Assembly: GCF_000018105.1 (NCBI RefSeq)
Contig: NC_009925.1
Coordinates: 3,780,001-3,812,000 of the forward strand
Direction: 5' to 3'
DNA: 32,000 bases
DNA from: Acaryochloris marina MBIC11017
GTDB taxonomy: Bacteria; Cyanobacteriota; Cyanobacteriia; Thermosynechococcales; Thermosynechococcaceae
Both the position numbers and the translations under genes were made by a program. Shown piece by piece: positions 2,937 through 26,975 of the stretch. Under the pieces are notes generated by a model. It saw nothing but the letters and a program-made list of their open reading frames with translations, did not search any database and was not told the origin of the DNA. Positions within the stretch are counted from its first letter, which is position 1; the number at the start of each line of letters is the position of its first letter.

Positions 2937-2969
2937 GAATGCTTGAATCGATTAAAGGTAAGAGAGGGG

Positions 2970-5113: not shown

Positions 5114-5172
5114 CTCGATGGCCGGTTGAATTCAAACGATTACAGTTATTGGGCTTTGATGGTCAATCAGCG

Positions 5173-6548: not shown

Positions 6549-6609
6549 CCTCTTGCTTTATCTCTAGGATGCCCAGCAGCATAAAACCCAGTTATCGCGA
6601 GGATAACGA

Positions 6610-9102: not shown

Positions 9103-9613
9103 AGCAGGTCCTCTCTTCTCAGGTAAAAAAGTTCAGGGCCGAGACCTCAAGAAAGAGTGTGGAGATCGTGAATGCATAAAAATCGTAAAATTAGTAGATA
9201 AGTTAGTAACGATTTTAGGAAAAAATGAGTTATATACTCTCTTCTATCTTGTGCTTATATGAGGTCTGCAATTAATAGCTTAAAATCGCTATAGTTAAAT
9301 ATCTATATTAGTTCTAGCTTTTTGTCTGTAAATCATGATTTTATTAAAAATTTCTATGAGTTAGTAGAAGAAGGTCGAAATATTCTCTTTATAAAAATAT
9401 TTATTGTGTTGGATTTTTGGCATATAAGGAATCGATTTGGGCTGGGCTAAAGAATGAATAACTCAGTCTTTGCAGTAGCCGTTAAATATCTGCAGAATGA
9501 GTCAAGAAAGACAACGGCAGCGTCAGGGCTCACCCTTGTGAGTTGATCAAGCAAACCGTTTAGGGTACTTGCCCTGAGAGAAGTGATGGAGAAACAGGCA
9601 TTTGGCAATCGGT

Positions 9614-11347: not shown

Positions 11348-12967
11348 ATGGGCATCAAGCGTCGACAGTTTTTGTGGTTCGGGGGGACTGCTGTAATCAG
11401 CTTGGCCTCGTCCCAATGGTCTTTCGCCAAATCAGTTCGGGATATTCGCCAAATTGCCCGTCACATTACCGTTCGCATTATGACCCAAGGCCCTTCTGGC
11501 TCCGGGGTGTTAATCAAGCGAAATGACAATATCTACACCGTACTGACGGCGGCCCATGTGATCAAAAACTCCAACCGGGGTGAGGAAGCCTATGTGGAAA
11601 CCTATGACGGTGAAACCCATCTCCTCAATACCCAAATGATGCAGGTGGATGTCAAAGCGGATATTGCGATCGCAACCTTCACTTCCAGCAACAACTATCG
11701 CACCACCAACATTGGCAAGTTTAAAGACCTGGGCATTTTGGATGACATTTATGTCGGTGGTTATCCCCTAGCCGATCAGGCCATTTCCGTCTCCACCATG
11801 ACCCTAACTCGGGGCGAAGTGGCCTCCATTGGTGAATTTGAGGATGGCTATGGGTTTTCCTACACGGCCGTCACCAAGGCAGGCATGAGCGGTGGCCCAG
11901 TGTTAGATCGCGAAGGTCGCCTAATTGGGATTCATGGTCGGGCGGCGGGACAGCGCTTACAAGACGTGCGGATTAAAGATGGTTTGAATTTAGGGATTCC
12001 GATCTCAACTGCGATCGCAACCTTTGGTCTCGACAATCAGTACCGGCCCCTGACCGCTGAGCAACCGGATACATCTGAACCCCAGACCTCTGAACCCTCT
12101 GAACCGGAGTCCACCCAAGCGCCACCGGAGGAGACTCTGCCCGGCCTCTCTCGGTTTGCCTTTGAAGTGGTGGCAGTGAATGCCCAAGGTCAAATCCAAA
12201 CCCGCAGCCGTCAGTCTGCCCAATATTATCGCCAGCAGCTAAAACAAGATCAGACCCTGGATATGGTCTATATCCCTGGGGGAAAATTTAGTATGGGCTC
12301 TCCGGCAACGGAAGCCAATCGTCAAGGCAGTGAAGGTCCCCAACACCTGGTCACAGTTCCCACCTTTTTTATTGGCAAATATCCGATTACCCAAGCCCAA
12401 TGGCAGGCCGTGATGGGGGAGAATCCGGCCAAGTTTCAGGGGGCAGATCGTCCCGTCGAGCAAGTGAGCTGGCAGGCCGCGACGGAGTTTTGCCAAAAAC
12501 TATCGGAACTCACGGGCCAGGACTATCGTTTACCCAGCGAAGCAGAATGGGAATATGCTGCTCGTGCCGGGACTAGCGCACCCTTCTGTGTGGGGGCTAC
12601 CCTGACCACGGACTTAGCCAACTACGACGGCAACTATACCTATGGTCGCGGTCCGCGGGGCACCTTTCGCAAGGCCACAACTCCCGTTGGTCAATTTTCA
12701 CCCAACCCCTTTGGTCTTTATGACATGCATGGCCAGGTCTGGGAATGGTGTCAAGATCATTGGCATGACACCTACAAAGGGGCACCTGCGGATGGATCGG
12801 CCTGGGTGAAGGATACGGATGTGCGATCGCACCGAGTCAGACGAGGAGGATCTTGGTACGACGGTCCCCATGCCTGCCGGTCCGCCTTTCGCTATCGGTC
12901 ATTACCGAGTAACTATCAAAACTCCTATGGCCTGAGAGTGGTCTGCCAAGAGTTTAAGGATATTTAG
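11348..12967 (+). CDS. Tat-signal trypsin-like serine protease fused to a C-terminal FGE-like domain, paralog 2
   Basis: Signal peptide MGIKRRQFLWFGGTAVISLASSQWSFA. The protein is collinear with paralog 1 over its full length, sharing TAAHV, DIAIA, GMSGGP, a Pro/Glu linker, LDMVYIPGGKFSMGS, RLPSEAEWEYAARAG and RRGGSW. Confidence 0.9.
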   Translation: MGIKRRQFLWFGGTAVISLASSQWSFAKSVRDIRQIARHITVRIMTQGPSGSGVLIKRNDNIYTVLTAAHVIKNSNRGEEAYVETYDGETHLLNTQMMQVDVKADIAIATFTSSNNYRTTNIGKFKDLGILDDIYVGGYPLADQAISVSTMTLTRGEVASIGEFEDGYGFSYTAVTKAGMSGGPVLDREGRLIGIHGRAAGQRLQDVRIKDGLNLGIPISTAIATFGLDNQYRPLTAEQPDTSEPQTSEPSEPESTQAPPEETLPGLSRFAFEVVAVNAQGQIQTRSRQSAQYYRQQLKQDQTLDMVYIPGGKFSMGSPATEANRQGSEGPQHLVTVPTFFIGKYPITQAQWQAVMGENPAKFQGADRPVEQVSWQAATEFCQKLSELTGQDYRLPSEAEWEYAARAGTSAPFCVGATLTTDLANYDGNYTYGRGPRGTFRKATTPVGQFSPNPFGLYDMHGQVWEWCQDHWHDTYKGAPADGSAWVKDTDVRSHRVRRGGSWYDGPHACRSAFRYRSLPSNYQNSYGLRVVCQEFKDI

Positions 12968-12989: not shown

Positions 12990-15900
12990 CTAACCCACTA
13001 ACTCCGGGGTCTTCTGGTCAATCAATCCTGCTAGGGTATCGAGTAACTCCTGCTCGTTAAAGGGCTTGGAGAAATAAGCCGACGCACCCAAATTCATGGC
13101 CACCTTGCGGTGTTTTTCGTGACTGCGAGAGGTCAGCATCACAATCGGCAAGTCTTCAAACTGAAGTTGGCCTTTGACTTCTTCCAGTACGCCATAGCCA
13201 TCCAAGCGAGGCATTTCAATATCACAAACCACTGCCTGTACAGCTAAGCCGCTTTCCAGTTTGTCCACGGCTTCTTGGCCATCCTTGGCCTGTTCAACCT
13301 GATAGCCCGCTTTTTCTAGGGTCAGGGCTAAGAAACGACGGACATTAACAGAGTCATCCACCACCAGGATGGTATTGTCTGAGCTGACGGAGGGCAGAGA
13401 TTCGATGGGAGGCGTGATGTCGGTTTGTTGTCGTTCCAGGGACCATTTGAGAATGGACAAGGGGTCGAGGATGGGGACCACGCGACCGTCCCCTAAGACA
13501 GTAGAACTTACAAATCCGGGGGGCATGGGTAAGGGGCTGGCGATGTCGCGAATGGTTACTTCCTGTTCACCCCAGAACCGTTCAATTTCTAGGCCACCGA
13601 TCTGGTCATCCTCCCCAACTACGAGAATAGTGGGTTTGTTAATAACCGGAGTCCCGGACATTTCGGAGAATCGGCGGGTTTGATTAAAGGCCCAATGCTG
13701 AGCCAAGTTGATGATGGGAATGGAGCGATCTTGCCAGGTCAACGTGTGAGACGCTTCGATCCTTTGAATTTGGTCTGATTGCAATTGCAAAAGTTCGCAA
13801 ATGCTTTCACTCGGCACCGCAAAGATGAATCCTGAATGCTCGAGCAGCATGACGCGCAAAATTGAGAGGGTATAGGGAACTGAAATGGTGAAGGTGGTGC
13901 CTACACTCTGTTCAGTATGGACCTGAATTTCACCTCGGATGTCGCGAAGATTGTTGCGCACAACATCCATGCCGACGCCGCGTCCAGAGATTTCAGTCAC
14001 TTGGTCCGCTGTACTAAAGCCCGGTTCAAAAATACAGTCTAATAAATCGGCTTCAGAGAGTTGAGAGACTTCCCACTCCGGAATGCCCATGGCCTGCAAA
14101 CGATCACGGACCTTATCAAGGCGAATCCCTGCACCATCATCGCTCAGGGTAATGACTGTTTGTGCCCCTCGATTACGGGCTTGAATCGTAATCGTGCCTT
14201 TTGGCGCTTTGCCAATGGAAGTCCGGCGTTCCTGGCTGCCAATCCCATGATCAAAGGCATTACGAAGTAGATGATTAAGGGCATCTCCTAGGGGGTCCAG
14301 TACTGCTCGGTCAATCAGGGTGGCGTCCCCTTCCATCAACAGGTTGACCGGCTTATTAAACTGAACGCTCAAGTCTCGAATCATCCGGGGAAACCGTTTG
14401 ACGATTTCTCGGAAAGGCACCATCTGGGTGCGGGTGACATTCGTCTGCAATGAGCGGGTGGTTTGGTTAATATCGCGGACCGCCTGACCCATATCCTGTA
14501 GGGTCAGTTCAATATCGGAACCCACCTCTTGTAACTGAACAATCGTTTCGATTTGGTCTTGGGCAATCAGGTGCAAGTCCGTATACTGGTCCATTTCTAG
14601 GGCATCAAATTGCCCGGATCTGGGCTCAGCCAGTTGTTCGGGTTGAGCGGGAGCGGCTTCTTCGGCAGGGACGATGCCTTCCATAGAGGCGCGGTCGTAC
14701 CATTGCTGAAGTTGTGTATTGGAGGCTTCTAACTGACGAATCCGCTGTCGAATCAGTTGGGTGTAGGCTTGCAACTGCTCAAAACGCAAATTGACCGTAT
14801 TCCGATCTAGAATCAACTTCCCAAACAGGGTATTAAATTGCTCCAGTTGTTCCACGGGAACCCGCACCGTTTTACCGCTGAGGGGCTTCACGGGAGCAGC
14901 AGAAGGCTGGGCTGCCGTGGTTTGTTCCAAAATTTGAGCCGCACTCTCCAGGGTTAAGGGGAGATCAGCAACTTCTTCTTTGATTGTTGAGTCTGCCGTA
15001 GATTCAACCAGATCGGAAGTCACTTCAAAGGCCTGCTGTAGATCCGCTAGCTCCACCGAATCCTGCAGATTGGCGAGGGCATCTGCGTTTAACAAGTCTT
15101 CTGGCGCAAAGTCATCAGTAGCGATTTCGGCAGGAAATTCCAGCGCTGGCTCGGGCAACTCGACTGATAAGGCATCGGCTAAGTTGGCGATTGCTGGATC
15201 ATCTAGAGCAATGTTCTCGAAATTGACCGCTTCTGGTGCTTCAGGACCAGGTAGATTCATGGCTAAATCATCCGCTAGATCAGCGACAGCCGAATCCTCA
15301 AGGGCCACATTCTCCAGATTGACCGCTTCTGGTGCTTCAGGACTAGGCAGATCCGTGGCTAAAGCATCCGCTAGATCAGCGACAGCCGGATCATCAAGGG
15401 TAATCTCTTCTAGCGCTTCGGCGTTAGGCAGATCGGTGGCTAGGGCATCTGCTAAGTGGGCAACAGCCGGATCATTAAAATCAAGGTCTTCTATGGGGTC
15501 CGCTTCTATCGATTCAGGATTAGGTAGATCCGTTCCTAAAGCACCTGCGAGATCGGCGACAGGGGCATCCTCTAGGTTAATCTCTCCTGGCAACTCAATG
15601 GTACCAAAGTCAGCTTGCAGAGCTGATAGGTCGACGGAGCCAAGGGCAGTTTCAAAGTCGGCTTCGGGGCTGGAGGCCATCGTTGGCGTAAAGTCCAGCA
15701 GTTCATGGGGGAGCTTCTCGAAACTGCGGCGCAGGACCAGCGCATGGGACCGTCGCCAGGTTTTGAGGGCGGCCATTGAGAGTTCAGGAATCTGCTCCGG
15801 CACGACCTGGGTCGCCAGTTCCTGGATTGATTGGCAGAGCTGAATAAAAGAGTCTAAATTGGCCATATGGCCGAAGGCCACCAATTCTTCGGCGGTCATC

Positions 15901-16457
15901 GCGAGTTCAGCCGCTAGTTGAGGGGCTGGCAAGGTGCCAAAATAGCCTTCAATGCGATCGAGAACAGCTTCCACCCCATCCTCAAACATAAGTAACGCTG
16001 GATCGATTTCCTCTTCGCCACCACTGAGAAGTGCATTTTCGTCTGCATCTGTTACCTCGCCCAAATGGGTCTGCAGTTGGTCGAAGACGGGGGTGATATG
16101 GGCAGCCATCCAGTCAGCATCAATGTCAGCCCCTTGCTGATAGCGATCGCCTACTTGTCGTAAGCAGTCTAAGCCCTGCAACAGGAGGGTTTCTACCTCT
16201 GTTGCGATGATTTTGGAGGCATGGTGTACCCGCAGAATCTTGAAAAAATCTTCCAGACGGTGGGCCACTTTACTCAGATCCATCAGCCCCATCATCGCCG
16301 CCCCCCCTTTGACAGAGTGGGAGGCTCTGAGCGCTTCATCGAGTTGTTCGGGGTCTGCTGCGTTGGTGGCTAGACCCAGCAAAACGCGTTCAATCTTTTC
16401 GTAGCAGTCTTCCGCTTCTTCGAGAAATTTGAACTGGACTTGTTGTTCTTTATCCAT
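12990..16457 (-). CDS. Hybrid CheA-like histidine kinase with a C-terminal receiver (PilL/HmpE/PixL-type)
   Basis: N-terminal Hpt domain (SHSVKGGAAMMG, His47), an acidic repeat linker, and HATPase boxes (NHLLRNAFDHGI, DDGAGI, GRGVGMDVV). A CheW-like P5 domain follows, then the receiver (ILVVDDSVNVRR...VVCDIEMPRLDG...YFSKPF). Confidence 0.93.
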   Translation of the reverse strand: MDKEQQVQFKFLEEAEDCYEKIERVLLGLATNAADPEQLDEALRASHSVKGGAAMMGLMDLSKVAHRLEDFFKILRVHHASKIIATEVETLLLQGLDCLRQVGDRYQQGADIDADWMAAHITPVFDQLQTHLGEVTDADENALLSGGEEEIDPALLMFEDGVEAVLDRIEGYFGTLPAPQLAAELAMTAEELVAFGHMANLDSFIQLCQSIQELATQVVPEQIPELSMAALKTWRRSHALVLRRSFEKLPHELLDFTPTMASSPEADFETALGSVDLSALQADFGTIELPGEINLEDAPVADLAGALGTDLPNPESIEADPIEDLDFNDPAVAHLADALATDLPNAEALEEITLDDPAVADLADALATDLPSPEAPEAVNLENVALEDSAVADLADDLAMNLPGPEAPEAVNFENIALDDPAIANLADALSVELPEPALEFPAEIATDDFAPEDLLNADALANLQDSVELADLQQAFEVTSDLVESTADSTIKEEVADLPLTLESAAQILEQTTAAQPSAAPVKPLSGKTVRVPVEQLEQFNTLFGKLILDRNTVNLRFEQLQAYTQLIRQRIRQLEASNTQLQQWYDRASMEGIVPAEEAAPAQPEQLAEPRSGQFDALEMDQYTDLHLIAQDQIETIVQLQEVGSDIELTLQDMGQAVRDINQTTRSLQTNVTRTQMVPFREIVKRFPRMIRDLSVQFNKPVNLLMEGDATLIDRAVLDPLGDALNHLLRNAFDHGIGSQERRTSIGKAPKGTITIQARNRGAQTVITLSDDGAGIRLDKVRDRLQAMGIPEWEVSQLSEADLLDCIFEPGFSTADQVTEISGRGVGMDVVRNNLRDIRGEIQVHTEQSVGTTFTISVPYTLSILRVMLLEHSGFIFAVPSESICELLQLQSDQIQRIEASHTLTWQDRSIPIINLAQHWAFNQTRRFSEMSGTPVINKPTILVVGEDDQIGGLEIERFWGEQEVTIRDIASPLPMPPGFVSSTVLGDGRVVPILDPLSILKWSLERQQTDITPPIESLPSVSSDNTILVVDDSVNVRRFLALTLEKAGYQVEQAKDGQEAVDKLESGLAVQAVVCDIEMPRLDGYGVLEEVKGQLQFEDLPIVMLTSRSHEKHRKVAMNLGASAYFSKPFNEQELLDTLAGLIDQKTPELVG
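15123..15581 (-). repeat. In-frame tandem repeats (period about 96 bp, 27-32 aa) inside the CheA linker
   Basis: There are five copies of the core D-[PS]-A-[VI]-A-x-L-A-x-x-L-x-x-x-L-P. The 24-mer TTGACCGCTTCTGGTGCTTCAGGA occurs at both 15223-15246 and 15319-15342, exactly 96 bp apart. Confidence 0.85.
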
Positions 16458-16546
16458 AGTGCTGAGGCGATGATAGGTCGCTAATGTCGATGAGGGGCAT
16501 CCTGTATCTCAATCCAGAGGGCTCGAAAGGCAAGCGCTCGAAGGTT

Positions 16547-18955
16547 TTAGCTTGCTTCTTCGACCTTAAACTGGGCCACGGCTGCTTCCATCTGCTCGGC
16601 CACGGCTGCTGTTTCCTGCATGGATTCGGCCACCTGGGTGGAGGATTCCGCTCGTTGTTCAGATTGGGCTGCCATTTGCTGCATAAGGGTCGTCACCACT
16701 TTGGAGGTTTCGGTTTGGGATACGGTGGCGTCAGAAATCGAACGCATCAGGTCGTTAATTTCTTGCGAACGGTTGAGAACAACCGCCAGCTTGTCTTTGG
16801 TCGTTTCCACTAGGCGGGTACTATCGACCACCTGGTTGGTGCCGATTTCCATGGCTTCGGTTACTTCTTTGGTCTCGGCTTGAATACCAGCCACAATTTG
16901 GGCAATTTCCTTGGTCGCAGCAGCGGACTGTTCCGCCAGAGCACCCACCTGTTCCGCAACCACGGTGAAACCTTGCCCCTGCTCACCGGCCCGGCTGGCC
17001 TCTACACTGGCGTTAATGGCTAGGAGATTCGTTTTCAGCGCGATTTCTTCAATCAAAGACACCACCTGGGAAATCTTTTGGGAGGATTCACCCAAACGCT
17101 TAATTTTCTTAGCCGTTTCACCCACCGTATTTCGCAGACTGAGAATACTATCCACCGTTTGATCCATGGCATCACTTCCTTCTTGAACCGTGGTGTAGGC
17201 TTGGTCAGAAATCAGCGCGGCTTTACCAGCGTTGCTGGCTACATCCTCAATGGAGGTGGACATTTGCTCAATGGAGTCCAGCGTGGAACGGGTTTGCTCG
17301 GTTTCTTGGATAGCTTGTTCAGCAAGGGTCTGCATTTCCCCTTTGCTCTCGTTCAGAGACGAACTCACCTTGACCGAAGAGTCTTTTACTTGGGCCGCAA
17401 TCTCATTGAGGTTATCGATAATGGCGTTGAACAAGTCCGCAACGGTACTCATTTCCATCGAGTTTAAGCTGGCGCGGACGGTTAAGTCGCCATCCACCGC
17501 TTCTCCCACTTCATCGAGGAGCTGGTAAATTTCCATTTCCAGTTTGTCGCGGGATTCTCTTTGCTCTTCGGCGGTTTGTTCCGTTTTGTCGAGTAGAGTT
17601 TTCACCTCAGACACCATGGTGTTAAAGGTGCGAGCTAGGGCTCGGGTTTCGCGGGTGCCGTCCACTTCCGCTTCGACATCCAAGTTACCGCTAGCGGCTT
17701 CGTCAGCAGTATCCGTCAGTTTGGCGAGGGGATTGGAAACGGTCCCGGCTAGCCAGTAAATCACGGCGGTAATAAAACCTGCCAGTAATAGACCCATACC
17801 CCCGAACAGAATCAACTGCTGTTGCGCCAAAGCGGCTTCTTCTGCCGTTTCCACGGAGGCAATCGCCACCAGTTTTGTCCCTGGAATAATGGACACGTTA
17901 AAGAATCGATCCTTGTAGGTAAAGGAGGCAATCACTAACTTGAATTCTCCTGCTACCTGTTCTTTGGTCTTCAGGTCAGTAATGCCGGGAATATTTCGAA
18001 TCTGAGCCTTTGTGGCATTCAAATCACCTGCTTCTGCTTCCAGATAATCTTCGATGAGTTTGGCAGCTGCTACCACATCTGCCCCACCTGTCACCTCTTG
18101 ATTTTGGAGATCACTTCCTTTAGCCGTAATGGTATCTACTACTGCGTTGGTCTCTAGTTTGGGATTCACAATTTGGACAATTTCTGACTCGGTTAGGTTG
18201 GGAGACACCAGGGTACTGATGGCTTCGTCTAACGCTTTCGTTGGTATTGCAACTTTCGTCACCCCAATGAAATTACCCGCATCATCTTTAACTTGTTTGG
18301 AAAGGGCAATGATGTTTTGATTGGCTGATTCATCGAACTCCGGTTCTTCGATAAATTGCCCTTTCTCTTTGGCCATTTGCCACCAGCGTTCATCATTCTG
18401 GACAAAGTCGGAGGTGGGATTGCTATAGCCCACGTTAAATCCATATTTGTCCGTGACGAACACCTCAGCCAACTGACCATTTTTGACGACGCGTTGTAGG
18501 TACTCATTCAATTTAGCGTTGGGTTTTAGCAGTTTGGTACTCGCAAACTGCTGTTCCACTACTTCAATAGGCTTCTGGGGCAAGCCTTGGGCCTCAGCTT
18601 GTTGGGCGCCAGCTTGGACCGCTTCTAGTAATAATGGGTCACTATCAATAATGTCTGGAAATTTCAGGGCGTCTTTTAAGAAAATGGCGCTGGCTTCACT
18701 AGACAGCAAGCTCACCTCTTCCAACTGCAACAGGGCTTTTTCCTTGAGCTGGGCTTCTGTTTGCACGTAACCGATCACACTGGCAATGGCCACCGGGGCC
18801 AAGGCTACGGGCAAAACGGTGGTTAATAGTTTTTGGCGCAGGGTGGCAGCCGGTTTGGTGTAGGGGGTGGCTGGGTCAACGTTGAGATCTTGGGCCGCCA
18901 TGTTGCCGTTGCTGGCCGTGGCGTCTGCTAGGGTCATGTCCTGTTGGGTCGTCAT
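16547..18955 (-). CDS. Methyl-accepting chemotaxis protein with a large extracytoplasmic domain and no GAF/phytochrome domain (PilJ/HmpD-like)
   Basis: TM1 is LLTTVLPVALAPVAIASVIGYV. A roughly 315-aa ectodomain follows, then TM2 (LILFGGMGLLLAGFITAVIYWLAG), a HAMP domain, and an MCP signalling domain (ALKTNLLAINASVEASRAGEQGQGFTVVAEQV). Confidence 0.95.
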   Translation of the reverse strand: MTTQQDMTLADATASNGNMAAQDLNVDPATPYTKPAATLRQKLLTTVLPVALAPVAIASVIGYVQTEAQLKEKALLQLEEVSLLSSEASAIFLKDALKFPDIIDSDPLLLEAVQAGAQQAEAQGLPQKPIEVVEQQFASTKLLKPNAKLNEYLQRVVKNGQLAEVFVTDKYGFNVGYSNPTSDFVQNDERWWQMAKEKGQFIEEPEFDESANQNIIALSKQVKDDAGNFIGVTKVAIPTKALDEAISTLVSPNLTESEIVQIVNPKLETNAVVDTITAKGSDLQNQEVTGGADVVAAAKLIEDYLEAEAGDLNATKAQIRNIPGITDLKTKEQVAGEFKLVIASFTYKDRFFNVSIIPGTKLVAIASVETAEEAALAQQQLILFGGMGLLLAGFITAVIYWLAGTVSNPLAKLTDTADEAASGNLDVEAEVDGTRETRALARTFNTMVSEVKTLLDKTEQTAEEQRESRDKLEMEIYQLLDEVGEAVDGDLTVRASLNSMEMSTVADLFNAIIDNLNEIAAQVKDSSVKVSSSLNESKGEMQTLAEQAIQETEQTRSTLDSIEQMSTSIEDVASNAGKAALISDQAYTTVQEGSDAMDQTVDSILSLRNTVGETAKKIKRLGESSQKISQVVSLIEEIALKTNLLAINASVEASRAGEQGQGFTVVAEQVGALAEQSAAATKEIAQIVAGIQAETKEVTEAMEIGTNQVVDSTRLVETTKDKLAVVLNRSQEINDLMRSISDATVSQTETSKVVTTLMQQMAAQSEQRAESSTQVAESMQETAAVAEQMEAAVAQFKVEEAS

Positions 18956-19027
18956 GGTCTTGTGGTGAAAGTAACTAAGGAGTAAAGAAAGCTGCCAACT
19001 GGACGTTGACGGGTATGCTGTTGCAGG

Positions 19028-19591
19028 TTAGGTCGGATATAAAGCCGGTGCTTTGGCCAGGAATGGCGGATAGAAAAGATACAGGGTTTGCTCGTCCTGT
19101 TGGCAAGTGGCTGTAACGTAGGGACTTAGGTTTGCCGGACAGGCAGCAATTTCGGTTTGCAGTTGCTCTTCTTGTAAGCGGGTGACCCCTTGAATTTGGG
19201 GAACGGCCAGCCCCAAAAGCGCCTCTCCATTTCCCGAGCGTTGATAGTCAGAAGGAGGTACCCGGACAACAATCACGCGGTATCGGCGCTGGCTACCGAT
19301 GATATCGGGGTATCCCAACAACTGGGGCAGATTGACCACACAGAAGACCTGATCTCGGGAATTCATTAACCCCAGCACCGATCGGGCCATATTAGGGATG
19401 AGGGTAATCTGCTCAGCCTCTACAATTAAGGACTCTTGGACATGCTCCATTGAGAGCAAAGCACCGATACCCTCTGCCACCATAAACCGCAGATAGGGTT
19501 GTCCGGTGAGCTGGGTGGACTGAAATAACTGGGGTAGCAGCTCTTGCAGTCGTGATAGTGAAGTTGTAGAGGCAGTCGGTTGTTGGGTCAT
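19028..19591 (-). CDS. CheW-like coupling protein
   Basis: Single CheW domain (YLRFMVAEGIGALLSMEHVQESL...VLGLMNSRDQVFCVVNLPQLLG). Its start directly abuts the stop of the CheY-like gene. Confidence 0.9.
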   Translation of the reverse strand: MTQQPTASTTSLSRLQELLPQLFQSTQLTGQPYLRFMVAEGIGALLSMEHVQESLIVEAEQITLIPNMARSVLGLMNSRDQVFCVVNLPQLLGYPDIIGSQRRYRVIVVRVPPSDYQRSGNGEALLGLAVPQIQGVTRLQEEQLQTEIAACPANLSPYVTATCQQDEQTLYLFYPPFLAKAPALYPT

Positions 19592-19957
19592 TTATTTCAT
19601 TGCCGCTCTCAGGGCACTCACGAGTTCTTGCTTGGTGCAGGGTTTTGTGACATAGGCTTCTACCCCTTGCTTGGCAGCCCACATGCGATCGACATCTCGA
19701 TTCTTAGCGGTACAGGCCACCACGGGAATATCGGCGGTGTCGGGGTTCTTGCGTAGCTTCCGGGCTAGGTCTAACCCGCCCATTTCCGGCATCATCCAAT
19801 CGGTGACAATGGCGTCGGGCTTGTTCTGACTAACTTTTTCTAGTGCCTCTGTGCCATTGGTGGCCGTGACGATGGTGTAGCCTTCTTCGGTCAGGTATTG
19901 ACAGAGTAAGTCCAGTTCGGATTGGAGGTCATCGACGACTAAGATTTTGCTGCTCAT
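19592..19957 (-). CDS. Single-domain CheY-like response regulator
   Basis: MSSKILVVDDLQSELD...AIVTDWMMPEMGG...VVACTAK...YVTKPC. I use ATG 19957, which has AAGGA upstream. The track ORF extends to a GTG at 20065 and adds an implausible His/Ser-rich 36 aa. Confidence 0.9.
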   Translation of the reverse strand: MSSKILVVDDLQSELDLLCQYLTEEGYTIVTATNGTEALEKVSQNKPDAIVTDWMMPEMGGLDLARKLRKNPDTADIPVVACTAKNRDVDRMWAAKQGVEAYVTKPCTKQELVSALRAAMK

Positions 19958-20073
19958 GGTGTGTCCTTGGGTGGCTAAGTTATGAAACGTAAGTAGAGTT
20001 GAGGAACTGGAATGAGAGTGGTGTGGGGTAGACGGGCTACCCAATGTGAGTCTATTGGAACTCACCTATACTC

Positions 20074-21300
20074 CTAAGCTGGATTGAGTTGAGTCAGGTA
20101 TTTCTCCACCACATCTGTGAGACCTTGTTGGGTAAAGGGTTTGGTGAAGTAATCGGTGGCACCGGCCAATTTGGCACGGGCTTTATCAATCAGCCCCGTA
20201 TTTCCCGTCACCATGATGATCGGGGTTTCGTCAAAGACGGCACTACTTCTGAGCAGACTGCACAAACGGTAACCGTTTATTTTGGGCATTGTGATATCGA
20301 GCAAAATCAGATCGGGCTTGATCCGAAAGATGACTGAAGAGGCTTGAATCGGGTCATCGACCGTTGTAACTTCATATCGAGTATTCCCTAAAAACCGCTC
20401 AATCTCACTCAAAATCGTTGGACTATCGTCAATGCAGACAATCTTAAAGACGCGATTAGCGGCCTGGGCTGTCTGAGCAGCTTGGGTTACGGTTGGCGTG
20501 TTAGGAACACCTGGAACCCGAGGTAGTTGGTCAAAAGGCGGCTGTGGATTGCGTAAAAAAATGACCTGCTGTTCTACATAGGGACCAAAGAGCTGAGCAA
20601 TATGCAGCTCGTCTTGTTTGAGCAGGACTGACAGCTGGCGAATACTGAATCCTCGACTCATCAACTGGGCGAGTTTCGTCAGTGCTTCTGGGGATAGTTT
20701 GCCCCCCTGAACGGGTTTGCTGATATGGCGAAAATCTAATAGGTAAGGACGCTGATAAGGTGACCAAATTTCTTTGCTACAACTTTGCCAACCCTTCATG
20801 CGTTGCTTGAGGAAGCGGACCGTATCGACTACGTCCACTAAAGGCGTTTGCCCCAATACCGTCGTCACCCATTCCGGCGAAGGCGTACCATTTTCCCAAA
20901 CTGCTCTGGCTTGACGCAGCCATAAAAAGGTTTCTAATGCATCTTGAGTAATATCTTCAATCAGCTGTCTGGATTGGATCTCATCTAGCATATGGCGTTC
21001 CTGCAGCCAGAGCATTGATCGCTGAATGAGTCCTTGGGCCTTGGTGACGGTTGTGACCCCAGCCTCCGTTGCGGGTGGCATTTCTTTAAGGACGTTATAT
21101 GCCTGGTCTAACCCTTGTCGGCATAGGAAATAGCTGAGTTGGGCCAGGGTTTGAATGGAGCAGTCTACATACTGTAGGTCTCCCTCATTTAAATAGATGT
21201 GCCAAACGGCTTTACCATTGCTCGCTTTGAGTACGCCTGTCGCACTAGAGCTTGATAACTCAGTTAACAGCTGATACGGATCAAACTTAGAGGGTTCCAT
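20074..21300 (-). CDS. PatA-subfamily response regulator (N-terminal PATAN domain plus C-terminal receiver)
   Basis: A non-receiver N-terminal domain of about 280 aa is followed by the receiver: KIVCIDDSPTIL...LILLDITMPKINGY...IIMVTGN...YFTKPF. It occupies the first position of a PatA-CheY-CheW-MCP-CheA operon, as in cyanobacterial Tax/Pil/Hmp loci. Confidence 0.9.
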   Translation of the reverse strand: MEPSKFDPYQLLTELSSSSATGVLKASNGKAVWHIYLNEGDLQYVDCSIQTLAQLSYFLCRQGLDQAYNVLKEMPPATEAGVTTVTKAQGLIQRSMLWLQERHMLDEIQSRQLIEDITQDALETFLWLRQARAVWENGTPSPEWVTTVLGQTPLVDVVDTVRFLKQRMKGWQSCSKEIWSPYQRPYLLDFRHISKPVQGGKLSPEALTKLAQLMSRGFSIRQLSVLLKQDELHIAQLFGPYVEQQVIFLRNPQPPFDQLPRVPGVPNTPTVTQAAQTAQAANRVFKIVCIDDSPTILSEIERFLGNTRYEVTTVDDPIQASSVIFRIKPDLILLDITMPKINGYRLCSLLRSSAVFDETPIIMVTGNTGLIDKARAKLAGATDYFTKPFTQQGLTDVVEKYLTQLNPA

Positions 21301-21634: not shown

Positions 21635-22720
21635 GTGTTTCCTTCTGAATATTGGCAAGGACGCGATCGCTTCCGTCATGCGGCCCAATCTCTGAATTGT
21701 GTTCTTGAAACGTATCCAATCCAAGCTCTCGGTCCTCAAGACCGAGCCTTGAGTATTGATGTGGCTCGATATGGGTCTAAATCGCCCCACACTACTCTGC
21801 TCGTCTCCAGTGGCTTACATGGAGTTGAAGGTTATTGCGGATCAGCCATCCAGTGGGCACTGTTGACCGATGTGCTGCCTCAGCTCACCTTGCCAAAAGG
21901 GGTGGCGGTGCTCTTGATTCATGCTCTCAATCCCTATGGCTTTGCCTGGAATCGTCGCTGCAATGAAGACAATATCGACCTCAACCGGAATTTTTTACTG
22001 CCGGAACAATCGTTTACAGGCAGTCCAGAGGCGTATACTCAACTGGATGCTTTTCTGAATCCTCGCCAACCGCCGACCCCACAAGAGCTTTATACTCTCA
22101 AGCTGCTGGGGTACGCCCTTCGATATGGCGTATCGTCCCTCAAGCAAGCGCTGCCCGTTGGCCAGTATGAGTTTCCCCAGGGCCTCTTTTTTGGGGGGCA
22201 AGCCCCTGCCCAGACCCAGCAGATTTTGGCGTCGCAACTCCCTACCTGGTTGGGGCCAACCCAGCGTATTGTTCATCTGGACTTACATACAGGGCTAGGA
22301 CGATGGACCGCGCCTACGTTCTTAGTGAAGCCTCAAGTCCACCAGACCGATCTGCCCTGGTTTCAACAAACCTTTACGGCAGAAGGTCTGCAAATCTTGG
22401 GACAACAAGGTGCGACCTATATTTGCCAGGGAGATATCGGTCCTTGGTGCCAAGCTTTGATGCAGGATTGTGACTATCGATTTGCCACGGTGGAATTTGG
22501 CACCTATCCGCTATTGCCGGTCCTCAAAGCGATGCGAGCAGAGAATCAGGCCCATTGGTGGGATGAGCCAGGGTCGTCTACCTATGCCTGGGCCAAATCG
22601 TTACTGCTGGAAGCTAATGCACCTACAAGTGATGAATGGCGTCAAGCCGTTGTTGCTAAAGGAATTGACTTAATTCATCAAGCGTTTGCAGGATTGAATG
22701 AGTTATGTCCTACCTATTAA
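21635..22720 (+). CDS. DUF2817-like protein, M14 carboxypeptidase / succinylglutamate-desuccinylase superfamily
   Basis: Zn-ligand-like motifs LHGVEGYCGS and DLHTGLG, plus DLNRNF. The family name is from memory. The start is GTG. Confidence 0.7.
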   Translation: MFPSEYWQGRDRFRHAAQSLNCVLETYPIQALGPQDRALSIDVARYGSKSPHTTLLVSSGLHGVEGYCGSAIQWALLTDVLPQLTLPKGVAVLLIHALNPYGFAWNRRCNEDNIDLNRNFLLPEQSFTGSPEAYTQLDAFLNPRQPPTPQELYTLKLLGYALRYGVSSLKQALPVGQYEFPQGLFFGGQAPAQTQQILASQLPTWLGPTQRIVHLDLHTGLGRWTAPTFLVKPQVHQTDLPWFQQTFTAEGLQILGQQGATYICQGDIGPWCQALMQDCDYRFATVEFGTYPLLPVLKAMRAENQAHWWDEPGSSTYAWAKSLLLEANAPTSDEWRQAVVAKGIDLIHQAFAGLNELCPTY

Positions 22721-23016
22721 TTCCAGATTTTTTAGGTGTGGAGTATTGAAATGGAGGCCATTGTCGTCAGGGATGCTTTGGAAAGGGGATGCAGTTCACT
22801 TTCTGCAAGTCGCGATTCAGTCCTTGATCATTGGGGGTGATAAGAGCGTTTTGCCTGCCAGAATCCAGATATTTTCTCTGGGTTTGTTGCCTCTGTTTAC
22901 ACCAGACTTGGGTCTTTTGTAGCGAATGTCCTAGCATTTCTCAGCGGAGAACGTCAGGATAAAGAGAAGGAACTGGTTTCCTGATTGTCATCATCCCCAA
23001 AGTCGTCGTTACATCC

Positions 23017-26000
23017 ATGCCTGAATTGTCTAGTATTCTTGATCTTCGTTTGGTTCTAGAAAGCGTTGGTGCGCTCCTATTGGGGACAGCTACCGTCGAT
23101 ACCCTGCGTCAACGGCAGTGGCAGCAGCAACTCACATCTGCCTCTGAAGAGCAACAACGGTTGCTAACGGCGGATCAAGCTCGTCTGCAGACCGAGCAAC
23201 AAACCCTTCAAACCGATAACGAGACGTTAACCGCGGCCCTTGCCAAGGCTAAACAGGTGGTGGAGGCTCAAGAACAGAGCGTTGAAGAGTTAAAGCAGCA
23301 GGTCAGCCAGCTACAACAGCAGCAACGGGCTTGGGCAGACGAGAAACAAGCCCAAGATCAGCAGCAGAAGACCTTAGAAACTGAACTAGATACTCAAAAA
23401 GCGCAATGCCAACAGCTCCAGGCTGAATTGGATGAGCGGGCTGCTACGACTACGGAGTTAGACAATCTGGCTGCTGCGAAAACGCAAGCGGAAGTGGATC
23501 TGCGCCAGGCTCAATCCAAAATGCGGGGTTTGCAACTCCAAGTGGATACCCTAACCCAAGCACAACAGCCATTGCAGGCCAAGGTAACGGCAGCAGAGCA
23601 GACAGCCGCTGTTGCTACCCAAGCTAAGACCCAACTGGAACAGCAGCTTGCCCAGTTGACTCAGACGCAACAGCAAGACCAATCCCAGGTGACGCAAGCC
23701 CAGGCAACGATTCAAAGTCTTGAACAACAAGTGGCCAGCCTGACCGCGACACAAAAAACTTTAGAAAATCAGCTGCAACAGCAGTCTCAACGGGATCGTC
23801 AGCGTCAGAACTTAGCGACGGAAGTGGCTATACTCCAAGATCAAATTGCGACCCTCACGACCCAAAACCAGAGCCTAGAGGATGATCGAGTCGCTGTTCA
23901 GCAAGAGAAAGATAGTCTAACCCAGCGATTAGAGACCTTAACGGCCACCCATGACCAGCTAGCCACCACCCAGGCTGAAACGGTTCAGCAGCTGGCTGCT
24001 ACGACTCAAACTCATCTGCAGTTGGAGCAAGCCCATGCTCAGCTAACAGCAGAGTTAGAAGGGCTCCATCATGCGCAGACGGATCTCTCTACCCTTCGCC
24101 AAGAAAAACAAACCCTGGAGTCTCTGGTTACTGAGCAAAAACAGGAAATTGACGATTTAACGGGACGACTGGCCACGGCCAAAGATCTGCAACGGCAGTT
24201 GGCAGAGGACTATGAAACAGCTCAGACCTCCTTGTCTGCTTTAGAGACCCAAGACACAGACTTCAACACAGAGCTGGCGGCGGATCTCCAAGATGCCCAT
24301 GCTCAAATCAAGACCCTTCAGCAAAATCTGGAGACCCTGACCCAACAAAATCAAGATCTGCGTAACCAGATCGCTGCTGCTCCACCTGAGCAGTCCCAAG
24401 CCTTACAGGAACTCGAACAAGCCCTGCAAGCTGCCCAATCCAGAAATCAACAGCAACAACAACAGCTGCAGGACCTAGCCCAAGAGAAAGAGTCCCTTGC
24501 TACTTCCCTGCAAACCGCTCAATCCAACTCCACTGAGCTACAGCAGCAGATTGCATCCTTGACTCAGCAACACCAGGAATTAGAGACCAGTTTGGAGCAA
24601 ACCCAAACGGCAGATTCCAGTCTGATTACGGAACTCACGACTAATCAGCAGCAGCTCACCACTGAACTAACTGACGCTCAAGAACTGATTACCAACCTGC
24701 GCCAGCAAATCTCAGATTTGGAAACCGCTCAAGAGGCTCAACCCACAAGCACAGATATTGAGGCCCTGACTCAAACCAATCAAACCCTATCGGCAGAGCT
24801 GTCAGACTCACAAACCGCCTTGGCGACCCTGCGTCAGCAACTTCAGACTCTGGAGCAGCAACAGCAACGCTTAGAGACGGAGCAAGGTGCAGTCGCCAAC
24901 GACCAGTCCAAAACCATTGCTGCTTTGGAAGCCCAACTGCAAACCCTGCAACAAGAACGGGAGACTCTCAATCAGCAGGTGGCGGAATATCAAGGCCATC
25001 TTCCATCTTTGCAAGAGCAGATTACGGATTTAGAACAACAGCGACAAACTCTGGAGTCCTCATTACAAGGTGCTGAAGCGCAAGCGCAGGACCTGGAACA
25101 GCAGCTCAATACCCTGAATCAAGGGCAAACCCAAACTCAGCAAGATTTACAGGCTCAGCAGCAACAGGTCATTACCCTAGAACAACAGGTACAGGCCCTG
25201 GAAGCGGAGAAGACTCAATTAGCATCTGCTCTCAAAGTCGCTGAAGAAGCCCCTATCCCTTTGCAAGAAGCCTTACAGTCCGCTCAAACGGAACAGACCC
25301 AGTTGGAGCAACGGCTGACAGCACTCACCCAGCAGAATCAGGACTTACAAACTGCGATCAATCAAGCCTCGGATACTTCTGCGTTGGAGACAGAGCTGGC
25401 GGCAGTGAAGGCGGAGAAGCAGCAATTAACTGTAACCTTACAAGCTGCTGAAGCCGCCTCGTTGCCTTTGCAAACAACCTTGCAAACTGCACAAGCTGAA
25501 CAGGTTCGTTTAGAGCAACAGCTCGCCGCACTAACAGAGCAGAATCAGAGCTTGCAAGTTTCTCTAGAACAGGCCTCTGATACCTCAGCTTTGGAGGCAG
25601 AGTTGGCGGCAGCGAAGGCAGAATGCGATCGCATCACCCAATCCCAACAGACAGCAGAAACCACCATCCAAACCCTGACCGCCCAACTGCAAGAGCTAGA
25701 GTCCCTACCTGAGCAGCTCCAATCCCTGACCCAAGCGAAAGCTCAGCTCGAAGCCGATCTCCAGCAGGCCACCACCATAACGGCAGAAGTGGACCAGTTA
25801 ACGCAGGCTCAGCAAGATTTACAGGCGGCGCTATCGCAGGCTGAGGAAGAGAAACTAGGGTTGCGATCACAACTCCAAACCTTAGAACAGCAGGTCGTGG
25901 ATCTGCAATCGGCGACGTCATCTGTGGAACTAGAACAGCAGCTTCAAGATCTGACGGCAGATCGCGATCAGCTGCAGCACAACTACGACACTGCGACGGC

Positions 26001-26580
26001 TAAAATCACGACCCTACAACAGCAACTCCACACCTTAGAACAGCAGGCTGCTGAGCTGCCTGACTTAGAGGATGCCTTACCTGAACAGATGATGGCAGCA
26101 ATGAAAGAGGCCGACCAACAGATCACGACCCTAGAAACCCAAGTCAAAGCCATGAAAAAAGACAAGGCAGAGTTGGAAAAAGCGATGAAAATGGCCAGGG
26201 ACGTCGTCTCGCATTTTGAGCAACAGGTTGAAAACCTCACCCAAGAAAAGCAACAGCTTGAACAACAATTCCAGATGTCTACCTCAGATGATCCTTTGGC
26301 CACGGTCCCAGCAGTTGTCCCTGAATCGCAACCTGGTCTCCCCCTCTCGGGACAAAGTTTTGTTATCACTGGCAAACTGGCTCAGCTCAGTTATGAACAA
26401 GTGAAAACAATCATTCAGGAAGCAGGTGGTACCATCAATACCCATCCCAGTTCTAAAACCAGCTATGTTGTCGTCGGGAAAGATCCAGGCAACAAGCTGA
26501 AAAAGGCTGAGAAATATAGTATCCCGCAATTATCAGAGCAGCAGTTAATGGAGCTATTGGGGTTAGATCTCTCTGCTTGA
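23017..26580 (+). CDS. Giant Gln-rich coiled-coil protein with a C-terminal LigA-type BRCT domain
   Basis: About 1080 aa are heptad-like and rich in Q, L, E, A and T. The last roughly 80 aa (GQSFVITGKLAQLSYEQVKTIIQEAGGTINTHPSSKTSYVVVGKDPGNKLKKAEKYSIPQLSEQQLMELLG) align position by position with the E. coli LigA BRCT as I recall it (GKTVVLTGSL...GAKV.[22 protein letters not shown].ELGI...E.E.L.LLG). Confidence 0.9.
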   Translation: MPELSSILDLRLVLESVGALLLGTATVDTLRQRQWQQQLTSASEEQQRLLTADQARLQTEQQTLQTDNETLTAALAKAKQVVEAQEQSVEELKQQVSQLQQQQRAWADEKQAQDQQQKTLETELDTQKAQCQQLQAELDERAATTTELDNLAAAKTQAEVDLRQAQSKMRGLQLQVDTLTQAQQPLQAKVTAAEQTAAVATQAKTQLEQQLAQLTQTQQQDQSQVTQAQATIQSLEQQVASLTATQKTLENQLQQQSQRDRQRQNLATEVAILQDQIATLTTQNQSLEDDRVAVQQEKDSLTQRLETLTATHDQLATTQAETVQQLAATTQTHLQLEQAHAQLTAELEGLHHAQTDLSTLRQEKQTLESLVTEQKQEIDDLTGRLATAKDLQRQLAEDYETAQTSLSALETQDTDFNTELAADLQDAHAQIKTLQQNLETLTQQNQDLRNQIAAAPPEQSQALQELEQALQAAQSRNQQQQQQLQDLAQEKESLATSLQTAQSNSTELQQQIASLTQQHQELETSLEQTQTADSSLITELTTNQQQLTTELTDAQELITNLRQQISDLETAQEAQPTSTDIEALTQTNQTLSAELSDSQTALATLRQQLQTLEQQQQRLETEQGAVANDQSKTIAALEAQLQTLQQERETLNQQVAEYQGHLPSLQEQITDLEQQRQTLESSLQGAEAQAQDLEQQLNTLNQGQTQTQQDLQAQQQQVITLEQQVQALEAEKTQLASALKVAEEAPIPLQEALQSAQTEQTQLEQRLTALTQQNQDLQTAINQASDTSALETELAAVKAEKQQLTVTLQAAEAASLPLQTTLQTAQAEQVRLEQQLAALTEQNQSLQVSLEQASDTSALEAELAAAKAECDRITQSQQTAETTIQTLTAQLQELESLPEQLQSLTQAKAQLEADLQQATTITAEVDQLTQAQQDLQAALSQAEEEKLGLRSQLQTLEQQVVDLQSATSSVELEQQLQDLTADRDQLQHNYDTATAKITTLQQQLHTLEQQAAELPDLEDALPEQMMAAMKEADQQITTLETQVKAMKKDKAELEKAMKMARDVVSHFEQQVENLTQEKQQLEQQFQMSTSDDPLATVPAVVPESQPGLPLSGQSFVITGKLAQLSYEQVKTIIQEAGGTINTHPSSKTSYVVVGKDPGNKLKKAEKYSIPQLSEQQLMELLGLDLSA
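25200..25630 (+). repeat. Two tandem repeat units of about 68 aa (204 bp) inside the coiled-coil gene
   Basis: AEEAPIPLQEALQSAQTEQTQLEQRLTALTQQNQDLQTAINQASDTSALETELAAVKAEK is followed by AEAASLPLQTTLQTAQAEQVRLEQQLAALTEQNQSLQVSLEQASDTSALEAELAAAKAE. Confidence 0.75.
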
Positions 26581-26622: not shown

Positions 26623-26739
26623 GTCTTCAAAGAAATATAGAATTCCATGTCTCCAGCCTTAGTAAACCCGCTGAAACCTAGATAGGCATGGGAAAATCGT
26701 GTTCGGATTTTTTGGCCTACACCTTTAGGAGTTATTTTC

Positions 26740-26874
26740 ATGACAGTGCGAACCATCACAGATCAACAAACGACGATTCGCTTTTCTGGCTACAAGCTGG
26801 ATGATGCCGATGCTTGGCTCGAAACATTAAAGGAAAATGGACGCCCTGTTCATGGAGAGTTGGCCAAAAGCTAA
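26740..26874 (+). CDS. Small hypothetical protein, 44 aa
   Basis: Below the ORF-track cutoff. AGGAG lies 8 nt upstream of the ATG. Translation: MTVRTITDQQTTIRFSGYKLDDADAWLETLKENGRPVHGELAKS. A strong terminator sits 70 nt downstream. I recognise no family. Confidence 0.5.
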   Translation: MTVRTITDQQTTIRFSGYKLDDADAWLETLKENGRPVHGELAKS

Positions 26875-26943
26875 GCTTTTTCTCAACTCTAGTTCTGCCC
26901 AACGGATTTTCCATCGTTAGGTTAGAGTTCCTCTTCTGATGCA

Positions 26944-26975
26944 ATACCCTCGACAAGATGCGAGGGTATTTTTTA
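26944..26975 (+). terminator. Rho-independent terminator
   Basis: 9-bp perfect stem ATACCCTCG/CGAGGGTAT with an 8-nt loop, followed by TTTTTT. Confidence 0.7.

Follow-up and report, generated by a model that had tools for sequence, protein, structure and literature searches.

A candidate membrane-to-DNA tether in cyanobacteria: a long coiled-coil protein of Acaryochloris marina with a probable N-terminal anchor and a ligase-type BRCT domain

What might a bacterium gain from a coiled-coil rod of more than a thousand residues that ends in a single BRCT domain? This question is raised by a gene of the cyanobacterium Acaryochloris marina MBIC11017, located on the plus strand at positions 23017-26580 of a 32,000-nucleotide (nt) stretch of contig NC_009925.1 (positions 3,780,001 to 3,812,000; hereafter the window, to which all coordinates refer). 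Translation from its ATG start yields a product of 1187 amino acids (aa) composed of 21% Q, 14% L, 12% A, 11.5% T and 9.7% E, and the initial annotation of the region was exact in both the coordinates and the glutamine-rich character of this product. BRCT domains in most bacteria are confined to DNA ligase and a DNA polymerase III subunit (PMC10386641). Given this restriction, a BRCT domain at the tip of a predicted membrane-anchored rod represents an unusual reuse of a module that reads DNA ends and nicks.

Our tentative answer, to which we give somewhat less than an even chance, is that the protein works as a tether in the cytoplasm: one end would be anchored in the thylakoid or plasma membrane, and the tip at the other would bind DNA by means of a phosphate pocket of the RFC1/LigA type. 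The parts of the protein, their order, their pattern of conservation and the subclass of the BRCT domain are established at the level of sequence, and they can be listed as follows.

23017-26580, plus strand: coiled-coil/BRCT gene (ATG start, 1187 codons and a stop, from the list of open reading frames)
23044-23097, plus strand: probable N-terminal membrane anchor, residues 10-27 (LRLVLESVGALLLGTATV), from hydrophobicity and alignment with relatives
23137-26274, plus strand: rod, an acidic Q/L/A/T/E-rich coiled coil, residues 41-1086, from heptad periodicity, a published prediction and the ratio of non-synonymous to synonymous substitution rates (dN/dS)
25201-25614, plus strand: tandem repeat, a unit of about 69 aa present twice, residues 729-866 (copies 729-797 and 798-866)
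26152-26274, plus strand: K-richer terminal coiled-coil segment, residues 1046-1086 (AMKMAxDVVxxLQxQVxxLTQEKQQLE)
26275-26334, plus strand: flexible Pro/Ser/Thr/acidic linker, residues 1087-1106, lacking secondary structure at a predicted local distance difference test score (pLDDT) of about 55
26335-26577, plus strand: single C-terminal BRCT domain of the LigA/RFC1 type, residues 1107-1187, from Pfam, Protein Data Bank (PDB) sequence matches, AlphaFold2 and Foldseek

The BRCT tip, the probable anchor and the rod

That the protein ends in a LigA-type BRCT domain had been proposed from the sequence, and a profile search bears this out: residues 1107-1180 score 43 bits with Pfam family PF00533, whose cut-off is 21.3 (E 5e-11), and LigA profiles match the protein solely with their C-terminal ends. 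Sequence searches of the PDB returned the BRCT domain of Thermus thermophilus LigA (1l7b, E 3e-14) and other LigA entries, along with the human RFC1 BRCT domain (2k6g/2ebu, E 5e-8). An AlphaFold2 model of residues 1045-1187, computed from a 47-sequence alignment (mean pLDDT 88), begins with a long helix (model residues 2-42) that gives way to disorder (43-68, pLDDT about 55) and then to a compact alpha/beta domain with pLDDT 87-97. When this model was compared with the PDB using Foldseek, the human RFC1 BRCT domain ranked first (2ebu, root-mean-square deviation 1.3 A over 75 columns, 35% identity), followed by LigA (9a6z_B), yeast Rfc1 on gapped or nicked DNA (7u1a and 7u19) and LigA again (1l7b), whereas phosphopeptide-binding and PARP BRCT domains ranked lower, with E-values weaker by one to two orders of magnitude. 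This ranking, together with the PDB sequence matches, places the domain in the LigA/RFC1 subclass.

The match to LigA is less close than the initial annotation held. An agreement described as nearly residue for residue is overstated, since identity to LigA BRCT domains averages 42-45% and reaches at most 49%, and identity to human RFC1 is 35%. Averaged over the family, identity is 0.455 to cyanobacterial LigA and 0.414 to other LigA, and this slight excess weakly suggests that the domain descended from a cyanobacterial ligase. The isoelectric point (pI) of the A. marina domain is 8.2. The BRCT domain is also the best conserved part of the protein, with a dN/dS of 0.02 relative to its counterpart in L006, an Acaryochloris metagenome-assembled genome (ortholog of 1129 aa, 73% identical), which served as the partner for all codon comparisons, and it is invariably C-terminal.

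For residue mapping we used a human RFC1 sequence that is 100% identical to 2ebu and 2k6g. Residues T415, G416, R423 and K458 of RFC1, which Kobayashi et al. 2006/2010 reportedly described as a DNA-binding set, correspond to T1118, G1119, Y1126 and K1160 of the A. marina protein. Across the family, the Gly and Lys are invariant (25/25), Thr occupies the T415 position in 13/25 members and Arg occupies the R423 position in 11/25. The members with Thr belong to the Acaryochloris/Leptolyngbya-type clade and those with Arg to a Synechocystis-type clade, and no member has both.

The N-terminus provides the second defining element. The view that the protein has no obvious transmembrane helix fails at the family level, where clear transmembrane-like N-terminal helices are present in every full-length relative. 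In A. marina, residues 10-27 have the highest hydrophobicity of the whole protein (Kyte-Doolittle 1.62) and are flanked by an acidic 9-residue tail on one side and by R31 and R33 on the other. They align with the N-terminal hydrophobic helices of 24/24 full-length relatives (19 cluster representatives and five genomic open reading frames, or ORFs), and in every full-length family member this N-terminal segment is the most hydrophobic part. The flanks are shared as well, with a charge of zero or below upstream in nearly all relatives and a positive charge downstream in nearly all. By the positive-inside rule, an acidic N-terminal flank and a basic C-terminal flank predict an N-out, C-in orientation that would keep both rod and BRCT domain cytoplasmic, as is expected of BRCT domains. 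Since it lacks a basic n-region, the pattern differs from that of a Sec signal peptide. We regard residues 10-27 as a probable membrane anchor in A. marina. Sums over 17 residues on the Hessa scale range from -1.7 to +2.3 kcal/mol in most members; those of A. marina (+4.9) and its congener (+4.2) are the weakest, the former because R11 and E15 sit inside the segment.

Between anchor and tip lies the rod, which had been described as almost entirely uninterrupted heptad-like sequence. The heptads stand up to scrutiny: the core-hydrophobic periodicity of 3.5 residues across residues 41-1085 has a z of 27.3 relative to shuffled sequence, 62% of 28-residue spans have at least 75% hydrophobic a/d positions as opposed to 12% in shuffles, and the COILS-type survey of Springstein et al. 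2020 lists 11 coiled-coil segments in residues 142-1091 of WP_012164115.1 (PMC7002697 supplement). The word uninterrupted does not, as eleven prolines split the rod into segments of 64-270 aa each. Fully extended, its 1046 residues (pI 4.2) would reach up to about 155 nm.

Rod length appears able to change in discrete steps. The largest indel that separates the L006 ortholog from the A. marina protein removes exactly residues 798-866, which is one of two tandem 69-aa copies that are 70.7% identical over 208 nt by direct DNA comparison. Because this duplication is absent from the congener, we conclude that the rod changes length through in-frame duplication or deletion of whole units. Tandem Repeats Finder reported no repeat in the coiled-coil gene, and the duplication was seen through the ortholog alignment and the DNA comparison. 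The terminal coiled-coil segment (residues 1046-1086) is kept across Acaryochloris, Thermosynechococcus and the Leptolyngbya-type clade, is 83% identical to its L006 counterpart and is modelled as a single helix (pLDDT 91-97). The linker that follows is 18% identical to that of L006, and both its sequence and its length differ across the family.

Evidence for the gene and the extent of its family

Long proteins of biased composition might be dismissed as low-complexity ORFs or as genes in decay, and two observations could be taken to favour this explanation. A search with the full-length protein returned no match, and the gene is split by frameshifts in two relatives, namely the v3 assembly of strain CCMEE 5410 (L005, GCA_000238775.3) and a metagenome contig from ENA (L004, positions 2909-7098, where the gene is spread over three overlapping frames). 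However, the empty search is probably an effect of the composition filter, as homologs were found when the C-terminal 168 aa were used as the query instead, after which family profiles could be built. In CCMEE 5410 v3, the ortholog is broken into many short ORFs along with the neighbouring DUF3352 and VanY genes, and one 96-aa piece is annotated as an 'SNF7 family protein', whereas in an earlier assembly of this strain the ortholog is intact (WP_010475778.1) and its coiled-coil map is the same as in MBIC11017. Both splits are probably indel errors of long-read assembly that have yielded misleading annotations.

The codon comparison with L006 also argues against an artefact. Overall dN/dS is 0.076 with synonymous sites saturated (proportion of synonymous differences, pS, about 0.7), and the values by part are 0.076 for the rod, 0.095 for residues 1-40, 0.02 for the BRCT domain and 0.69 for the 20-residue linker. 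The alignment falls into seven blocks, and all of its indels are in frame. Intact orthologs are present in five other cyanobacterial genomes. The gene is, judging from these substitution patterns, real, conserved and under purifying selection, and the low-complexity artefact or decaying gene that the initial annotation had raised as a concern is so improbable that we set it aside.

Thirteen contigs of a public assembly collection encode an identical product, with at least three separate sequencing runs represented among them. We infer that this product is WP_012164115.1, which is listed as a 'hypothetical protein', because neighbouring products are numbered WP_012164112/113 and because the published coiled-coil map ends at residue 1091. 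The products of two neighbouring genes are identical to ABW28733 and ABW28734 (AM1_3744).

To place the protein among its relatives, we queried 1.84 billion cluster representatives with a profile built on the C-terminal region and scanned one genome per prokaryotic species. The profile query yielded 19 full-length cluster representatives, between 254 and 1230 aa long with a median of about 475, as well as 25 fragments from the C-terminal end. Among the best 80 of 461 confirmed loci in the genome scan, which were mostly LigA, there are at least six loci of this family, and the divergent Synechocystis-type clade is not among these 80. Word-indexed searches gave almost only short fragments and pieces of LigA and have little bearing on the phyletic picture. 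The five intact genomic ORFs encode 1129, 852, 854, 651 and 537 aa, and the frameshifted homolog of L004 would encode about 1400 aa, such that whole-protein length in the family ranges from 254 to about 1400 aa.

Despite this variation, the layout is shared. A usually acidic N-terminus of 2-19 residues is followed by a hydrophobic helix of roughly 17-20 residues, a cluster of Arg and Lys, a Q/E-rich coiled coil, a variable linker rich in Pro, Glu, Ala and Ser and, finally, a single C-terminal BRCT domain. An alignment of 25 members revealed a family-specific BRCT signature, PGxKL[KQ][KR]AxK...PQLSE (PGxKLKKAxKxxxPQLSE), which the A. marina protein fits. All sources with a named organism are cyanobacteria: Acaryochloris, Acaryochloridaceae, Thermosynechococcus, Leptolyngbyaceae, Leptolyngbya, Synechocystis sp. 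LKSZ1 (WP_353673153.1), a Synechocystis metagenome-assembled genome and marine metagenome-assembled genomes labelled 'Cyanobacteria bacterium'. The phyletic distribution of the coiled-coil plus BRCT arrangement, which the initial annotation had proposed to determine, thus marks a family that is, as known so far from sequence, restricted to cyanobacteria.

The relatives carry annotations that are either unspecific or mistaken ('BRCT domain-containing protein', 'NAD-dependent DNA ligase', 'chromosome segregation ATPase', 'SNF7 family protein'). In the literature consulted, we found no description of a cyanobacterial or any other bacterial protein that combines a membrane anchor, a coiled coil and a BRCT domain, and the sole trace is a supplementary-table row on coiled-coil-rich proteins in which a cluster comprises just two Acaryochloris sequences (PMC7002697). 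The architecture is real, and the earlier impression that no characterised protein shares it agrees with our reading of the literature. The parts and the concept of a tether are known; what is new is their combination and the use of a LigA/RFC1-type BRCT domain as the tip.

Several better-known systems can be separated from this family. Like the BRCT domains of LigA and RFC1 (p140), that of A. marina is single rather than tandem and shares their fold, subclass and pocket with Thr-Gly and Lys. However, it is only 35-49% identical to them, has Tyr at the R423 position, carries the family-specific signature and resides on a predicted membrane-anchored coiled coil rather than on an enzyme. Pfam and NCBIfam scans of the A. 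marina protein detected no adenylation, OB, zinc-finger or helix-hairpin-helix (HhH) domain and no AAA+ module. A full LigA is ruled out, as only positions 539-664 of the 664-position profile match (63.5 bits against a cut-off of 369).

A long coiled coil is likewise common to SMC-, Rad50- and MukB-type proteins (including JetC and LmuB), and it is as a 'chromosome segregation ATPase' that pipelines name some relatives. Matches from Pfam, NCBIfam and PADLOC to GAS, CENP-F, SMC, Rad50, JetC and LmuB involve coiled-coil arms only; GAS and CENP-F_leu_zip, which pass their Pfam cut-offs, are both coiled-coil families, and the PADLOC matches were taken without cut-offs. The A. marina protein has no Walker A motif and neither a head nor a hinge domain, in keeping with the earlier remark that an ATPase head is missing. 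SMC/Rad50-type identity is ruled out by NCBIfam scores of 18-118 bits, confined to the arms, against cut-offs of 300-1087. A role in a defence system was also considered and rejected, given that the PADLOC matches consist of JetC and LmuB coiled-coil arms and a weak BRCT match to PDC-S48.

As an observation in its own right, the isolated BRCT domain weakly matches positions 330-406 of the 411 in the PDC-S48 profile (PDLC05027, E 4e-6), which means that a BRCT domain of the LigA type terminates at least one candidate defence protein as well. Separately, the BRCT profile recovers a distinct non-LigA set (P0064, P0068, P0072, P0074, P0076, P0083, P0097, P0099 and others) whose members start directly with a BRCT domain (MDVSGKKIVLTGTF...) and are Lys/Ala-rich and Gln-poor. 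Each has 3-4 separate stretches that match the profile and may represent several BRCT copies. These proteins appear to form another uncharacterised bacterial BRCT family.

Tether, docking site or scaffold

In the preferred model, the N-terminus would span either the thylakoid or the plasma membrane, with rod and BRCT domain on the cytoplasmic side. The rod would presumably be a parallel dimer or trimer that holds its BRCT domains at distances of up to about 150 nm from the membrane. Being negatively charged, the rod would stay clear of DNA, and the flexible linker would carry the mildly basic tip towards the nucleoid, where it might bind the DNA backbone or phosphorylated ends, nicks and gaps in the way that the isolated RFC1 BRCT domain does. 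The protein would thus link the membrane system to copies of the chromosome or to DNA that is being replicated or repaired. In this model, insertion into the membrane, an orientation towards the cytoplasm, a parallel oligomer and binding to DNA are all projections from the architecture.

What recommends DNA as the ligand is the biochemistry of the closest relatives. Gaubitz et al. found that the isolated RFC1 BRCT domain binds double-stranded DNA through the backbone, independently of sequence and with a dissociation constant (Kd) of about 10 nM, and it prefers 5'-phosphate ends, which are held in a deep groove (PMC9293009). Removal of the BRCT domain from LigA lowers its nick-joining activity (PMC10386641). 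Rod length varies roughly ten-fold between genera, as would suit a flexible tether or spacer more than a precise machine. The initial annotation had offered a tether between the nucleoid and another structure as one of its two suggestions, and this idea gains support from the conserved anchor-like helix and from the RFC1/LigA subclass of the BRCT domain. Most plausibly, the family ties DNA or a DNA-repair partner to a membrane.

Several points weigh against a DNA-binding tether. In A. marina, Y1126 replaces the Arg equivalent to RFC1 R423 (the 'SR' motif of LigA, in helix 1), and with Thr and Arg present in different members, the full RFC1 tetrad is kept by none. The BRCT domain is only mildly basic and is acidic in a few members (pI 5.1-5.9). 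Other BRCT domains use the same Thr/Ser-Gly...Lys pocket for binding phosphopeptides (PMC10386641, PMC9293009). The A. marina segment, with its Hessa sum of +4.9 and with R11 and E15 inside it, may be only peripherally associated with the membrane. Furthermore, the gene stands alone among unconserved neighbours (described below), and its neighbourhood therefore gives no functional clue.

The architectural precedent that we find closest is also imperfect. In the plant protein MFP1, an N-terminal anchor in the thylakoid membrane precedes a long coiled coil in the stroma, and a role as a nucleoid anchor has been proposed (PMC4154389, PMC10801857); its stroma-facing coiled coil would be equivalent to one that faces the cytoplasm, and a cyanobacterial tether would be its counterpart by analogy. 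However, MFP1 has no BRCT domain and is encoded by an angiosperm nuclear gene with transit and Tat signals. The role that is now best supported for MFP1 is the positioning of starch granule initiation rather than the anchoring of DNA (PMC10801857), which counts against our proposal and leaves the analogy with the A. marina protein as one of architecture only.

Some of the same evidence could favour a different role for the tip. If the BRCT domain were a protein-docking module, the anchored rod would draw a partner to the membrane or sequester it there; this partner could be a phosphorylated protein or one that contacts the LigA BRCT domain, such as a repair nuclease or RNA polymerase, and competition with LigA would then be possible. 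Most BRCT domains do mediate protein-protein or phosphopeptide contacts with the pocket noted above (PMC10386641, PMC9293009), and in A. marina Tyr takes the place of an Arg of the RFC1 DNA-binding set. Moreover, LigA of Mycobacterium tuberculosis forms a complex with the nuclease XthA (PMC7530888), and the deposited integrative model 9a6z pairs LigA with RNA polymerase beta, although these contacts may involve LigA domains other than the BRCT domain. Against this, the nearest relatives in sequence and structure are two BRCT types with documented direct binding to DNA, and no kinase, phosphatase or partner gene is conserved beside the family loci. We consider a docking role somewhat unlikely, yet it is the most serious rival of a DNA-binding tip. 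Of the phospho-protein docking that the initial annotation suggested, the specific link to a response regulator or Ser/Thr-kinase substrate loses ground, since the nearby signalling operon is absent in L006 and neighbours are unconserved, whereas the Thr-Gly...Lys pocket is compatible with the general idea.

A further explanation would make the rod itself the functional element, in the form of an intermediate-filament-like membrane scaffold for cell shape, division or thylakoid spacing to which the BRCT domain is an accessory. The protein is, after all, listed in a survey of cyanobacterial coiled-coil-rich proteins, and in the same work Syc2039 (Synpcc7942_2039) of Synechococcus elongatus, which has an N-terminal transmembrane domain followed by a coiled coil as our protein is predicted to have, forms filament-like networks in vivo, with impaired cytokinesis and uneven DNA distribution in the mutant (PMC7002697). 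Nevertheless, Syc2039 has about 280 aa, its listed domains are SMC, MukB and CALCOCO1 with no BRCT among them, and it has been reported only in Synechococcus; on account of its listed domains, it is unlikely to be a short member of the family. The BRCT domain, invariably C-terminal, is the most constrained part of the A. marina protein and hence is not an accessory, which makes a purely cytoskeletal role less likely. A length range as wide as that of the family would be odd for a lattice of fixed geometry, and the Crescentin rod profile (PF19220) scores 32.6 bits against a cut-off of 100. The free cytoskeletal filament that had been suggested earlier is weakened by the N-terminal anchor. All told, a scaffold is improbable, and we return to the tether as the preferred reading.

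Neighbouring genes and the meaning of a tether

The surroundings of the gene in A. marina seem at first to offer an attractive function. Upstream, on the minus strand at 12990-21300, is a chemotaxis-like operon that encodes a PatA-type response regulator, CheY, CheW, a methyl-accepting chemotaxis protein (MCP) with Cache and HAMP domains and a hybrid CheA. Between this operon and the coiled-coil gene lies a DUF2817 gene (plus strand), and downstream of the coiled-coil gene is a DUF3352 gene. Could the protein be an accessory of a chemotaxis-like type IV pilus motility system, similar to HmpF, that reads the phosphorylation state of the PatA-type regulator? The operon is only 1.7 kb upstream on the opposite strand, an arrangement that we take to resemble the divergent hmpF-hmpA layout of Nostoc punctiforme. 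HmpF (Npun_R5959 / Slr1301) is also a cyanobacterial coiled-coil-rich protein. However, it belongs to another family, and the sources consulted describe neither a membrane anchor nor a BRCT domain for it.

Two findings led us to reject this reading, which we judge very improbable. In L006, the DUF2817 and coiled-coil genes are kept, whereas the operon is gone save for a 36-aa regulator remnant (3178-3285, 58% identity) that sits between an FGE-sulfatase gene and DUF2817, and no other family locus has such genes. In addition, A. marina has a separate HmpF ortholog (WP_049783840.1) that falls in the cluster of Npun_R5959, is encoded outside the window and has no BLAST similarity to the coiled-coil/BRCT protein. 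Between these Acaryochloris congeners, the five-gene operon represents a gain or loss of a whole operon.

At other family loci, the neighbours are unrelated genes of a housekeeping kind and include MurJ, ExoD, Ppx/GppA and Dxr, succinate dehydrogenase and RsfS, as well as a penicillin-binding protein, a LuxR-type regulator and an acyl-CoA synthetase. Across these loci, no gene neighbour is conserved, including any kinase, phosphatase or candidate partner.

Downstream of the gene, one additional feature might define the end of its transcription unit.

26943-26970, plus strand: candidate intrinsic terminator, a 10-bp stem followed by a T-run, from a pattern scan

This hairpin, a consensus match only, lies within a 374-nt stretch that is 80% identical to L006 and may end the transcription unit, although terminator-type matches in the region are in total no more numerous than in shuffles. 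A promoter scan revealed no promoter-like site upstream of the coiled-coil/BRCT gene, with a match count that does not exceed that of shuffles, and Rfam and tRNA scans of the window found nothing.

Other observations concern smaller or more distant genes. A 44-aa ORF (MTVRTITDQQTTIRFSGYKLDDADAWLETLKENGRPVHGELAKS; 26740-26874, plus strand) begins 160 nt downstream of the BRCT gene and is preceded by a Shine-Dalgarno-like AGGAG at 26729-26733. It is 91% identical in L006, with 17 synonymous versus 4 non-synonymous codon differences, and is therefore probably a real gene for a small protein. It has no Pfam match, was not found beside other family members and may be co-transcribed with the coiled-coil gene. 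In public assemblies, the gene finder also calls a 74-aa ORF (22698-22922, plus strand) that runs over the end of DUF2817; L006 lacks a counterpart, and the call is probably spurious. Two tandem paralogs (9602-11227 and 11348-12967, plus strand) each combine a trypsin-like peptidase with an FGE-sulfatase (formylglycine-generating-enzyme-like) domain; L006 has one copy that is 82% identical to the second window gene and 66% to the first. Finally, a minus-strand trio (5173-7263) comprises a SIR2-family gene (5820-6548), a DUF6348 gene (6610-7263) and a gene whose 216-aa product lacks any Pfam match (5173-5823). When it lies next to uncharacterised genes, SIR2 can mark a defence island.

What would a tether of the proposed kind mean for cyanobacteria? 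To our knowledge, the organisation of their chromosome copies relative to thylakoids is poorly understood, and we know of no dedicated membrane-DNA tether that has been described in these organisms. It is possible, although we hold this broader claim with more doubt than the tether model itself, that the family represents a previously undescribed type of prokaryotic membrane-to-DNA tether in which a LigA/RFC1-type BRCT domain, a module that reads nicks, gaps and 5'-phosphate ends, sits on an anchored rod, tunable from about 15 to 185 nm, and couples chromosome copies or intermediates of replication and repair to the thylakoid or plasma membrane. The family offers a concrete candidate for such a tether that can be deleted, and the lengths that occur naturally in it could serve as a ready-made test of how spacer length matters. 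On its own, the BRCT domain is small, confidently modelled and biochemically easy to test. If the proposal is true, these proteins would be, by analogy, bacterial forerunners of plastid nucleoid anchors, and they could help to explain how polyploid cyanobacteria position their genomes with respect to photosynthetic membranes.

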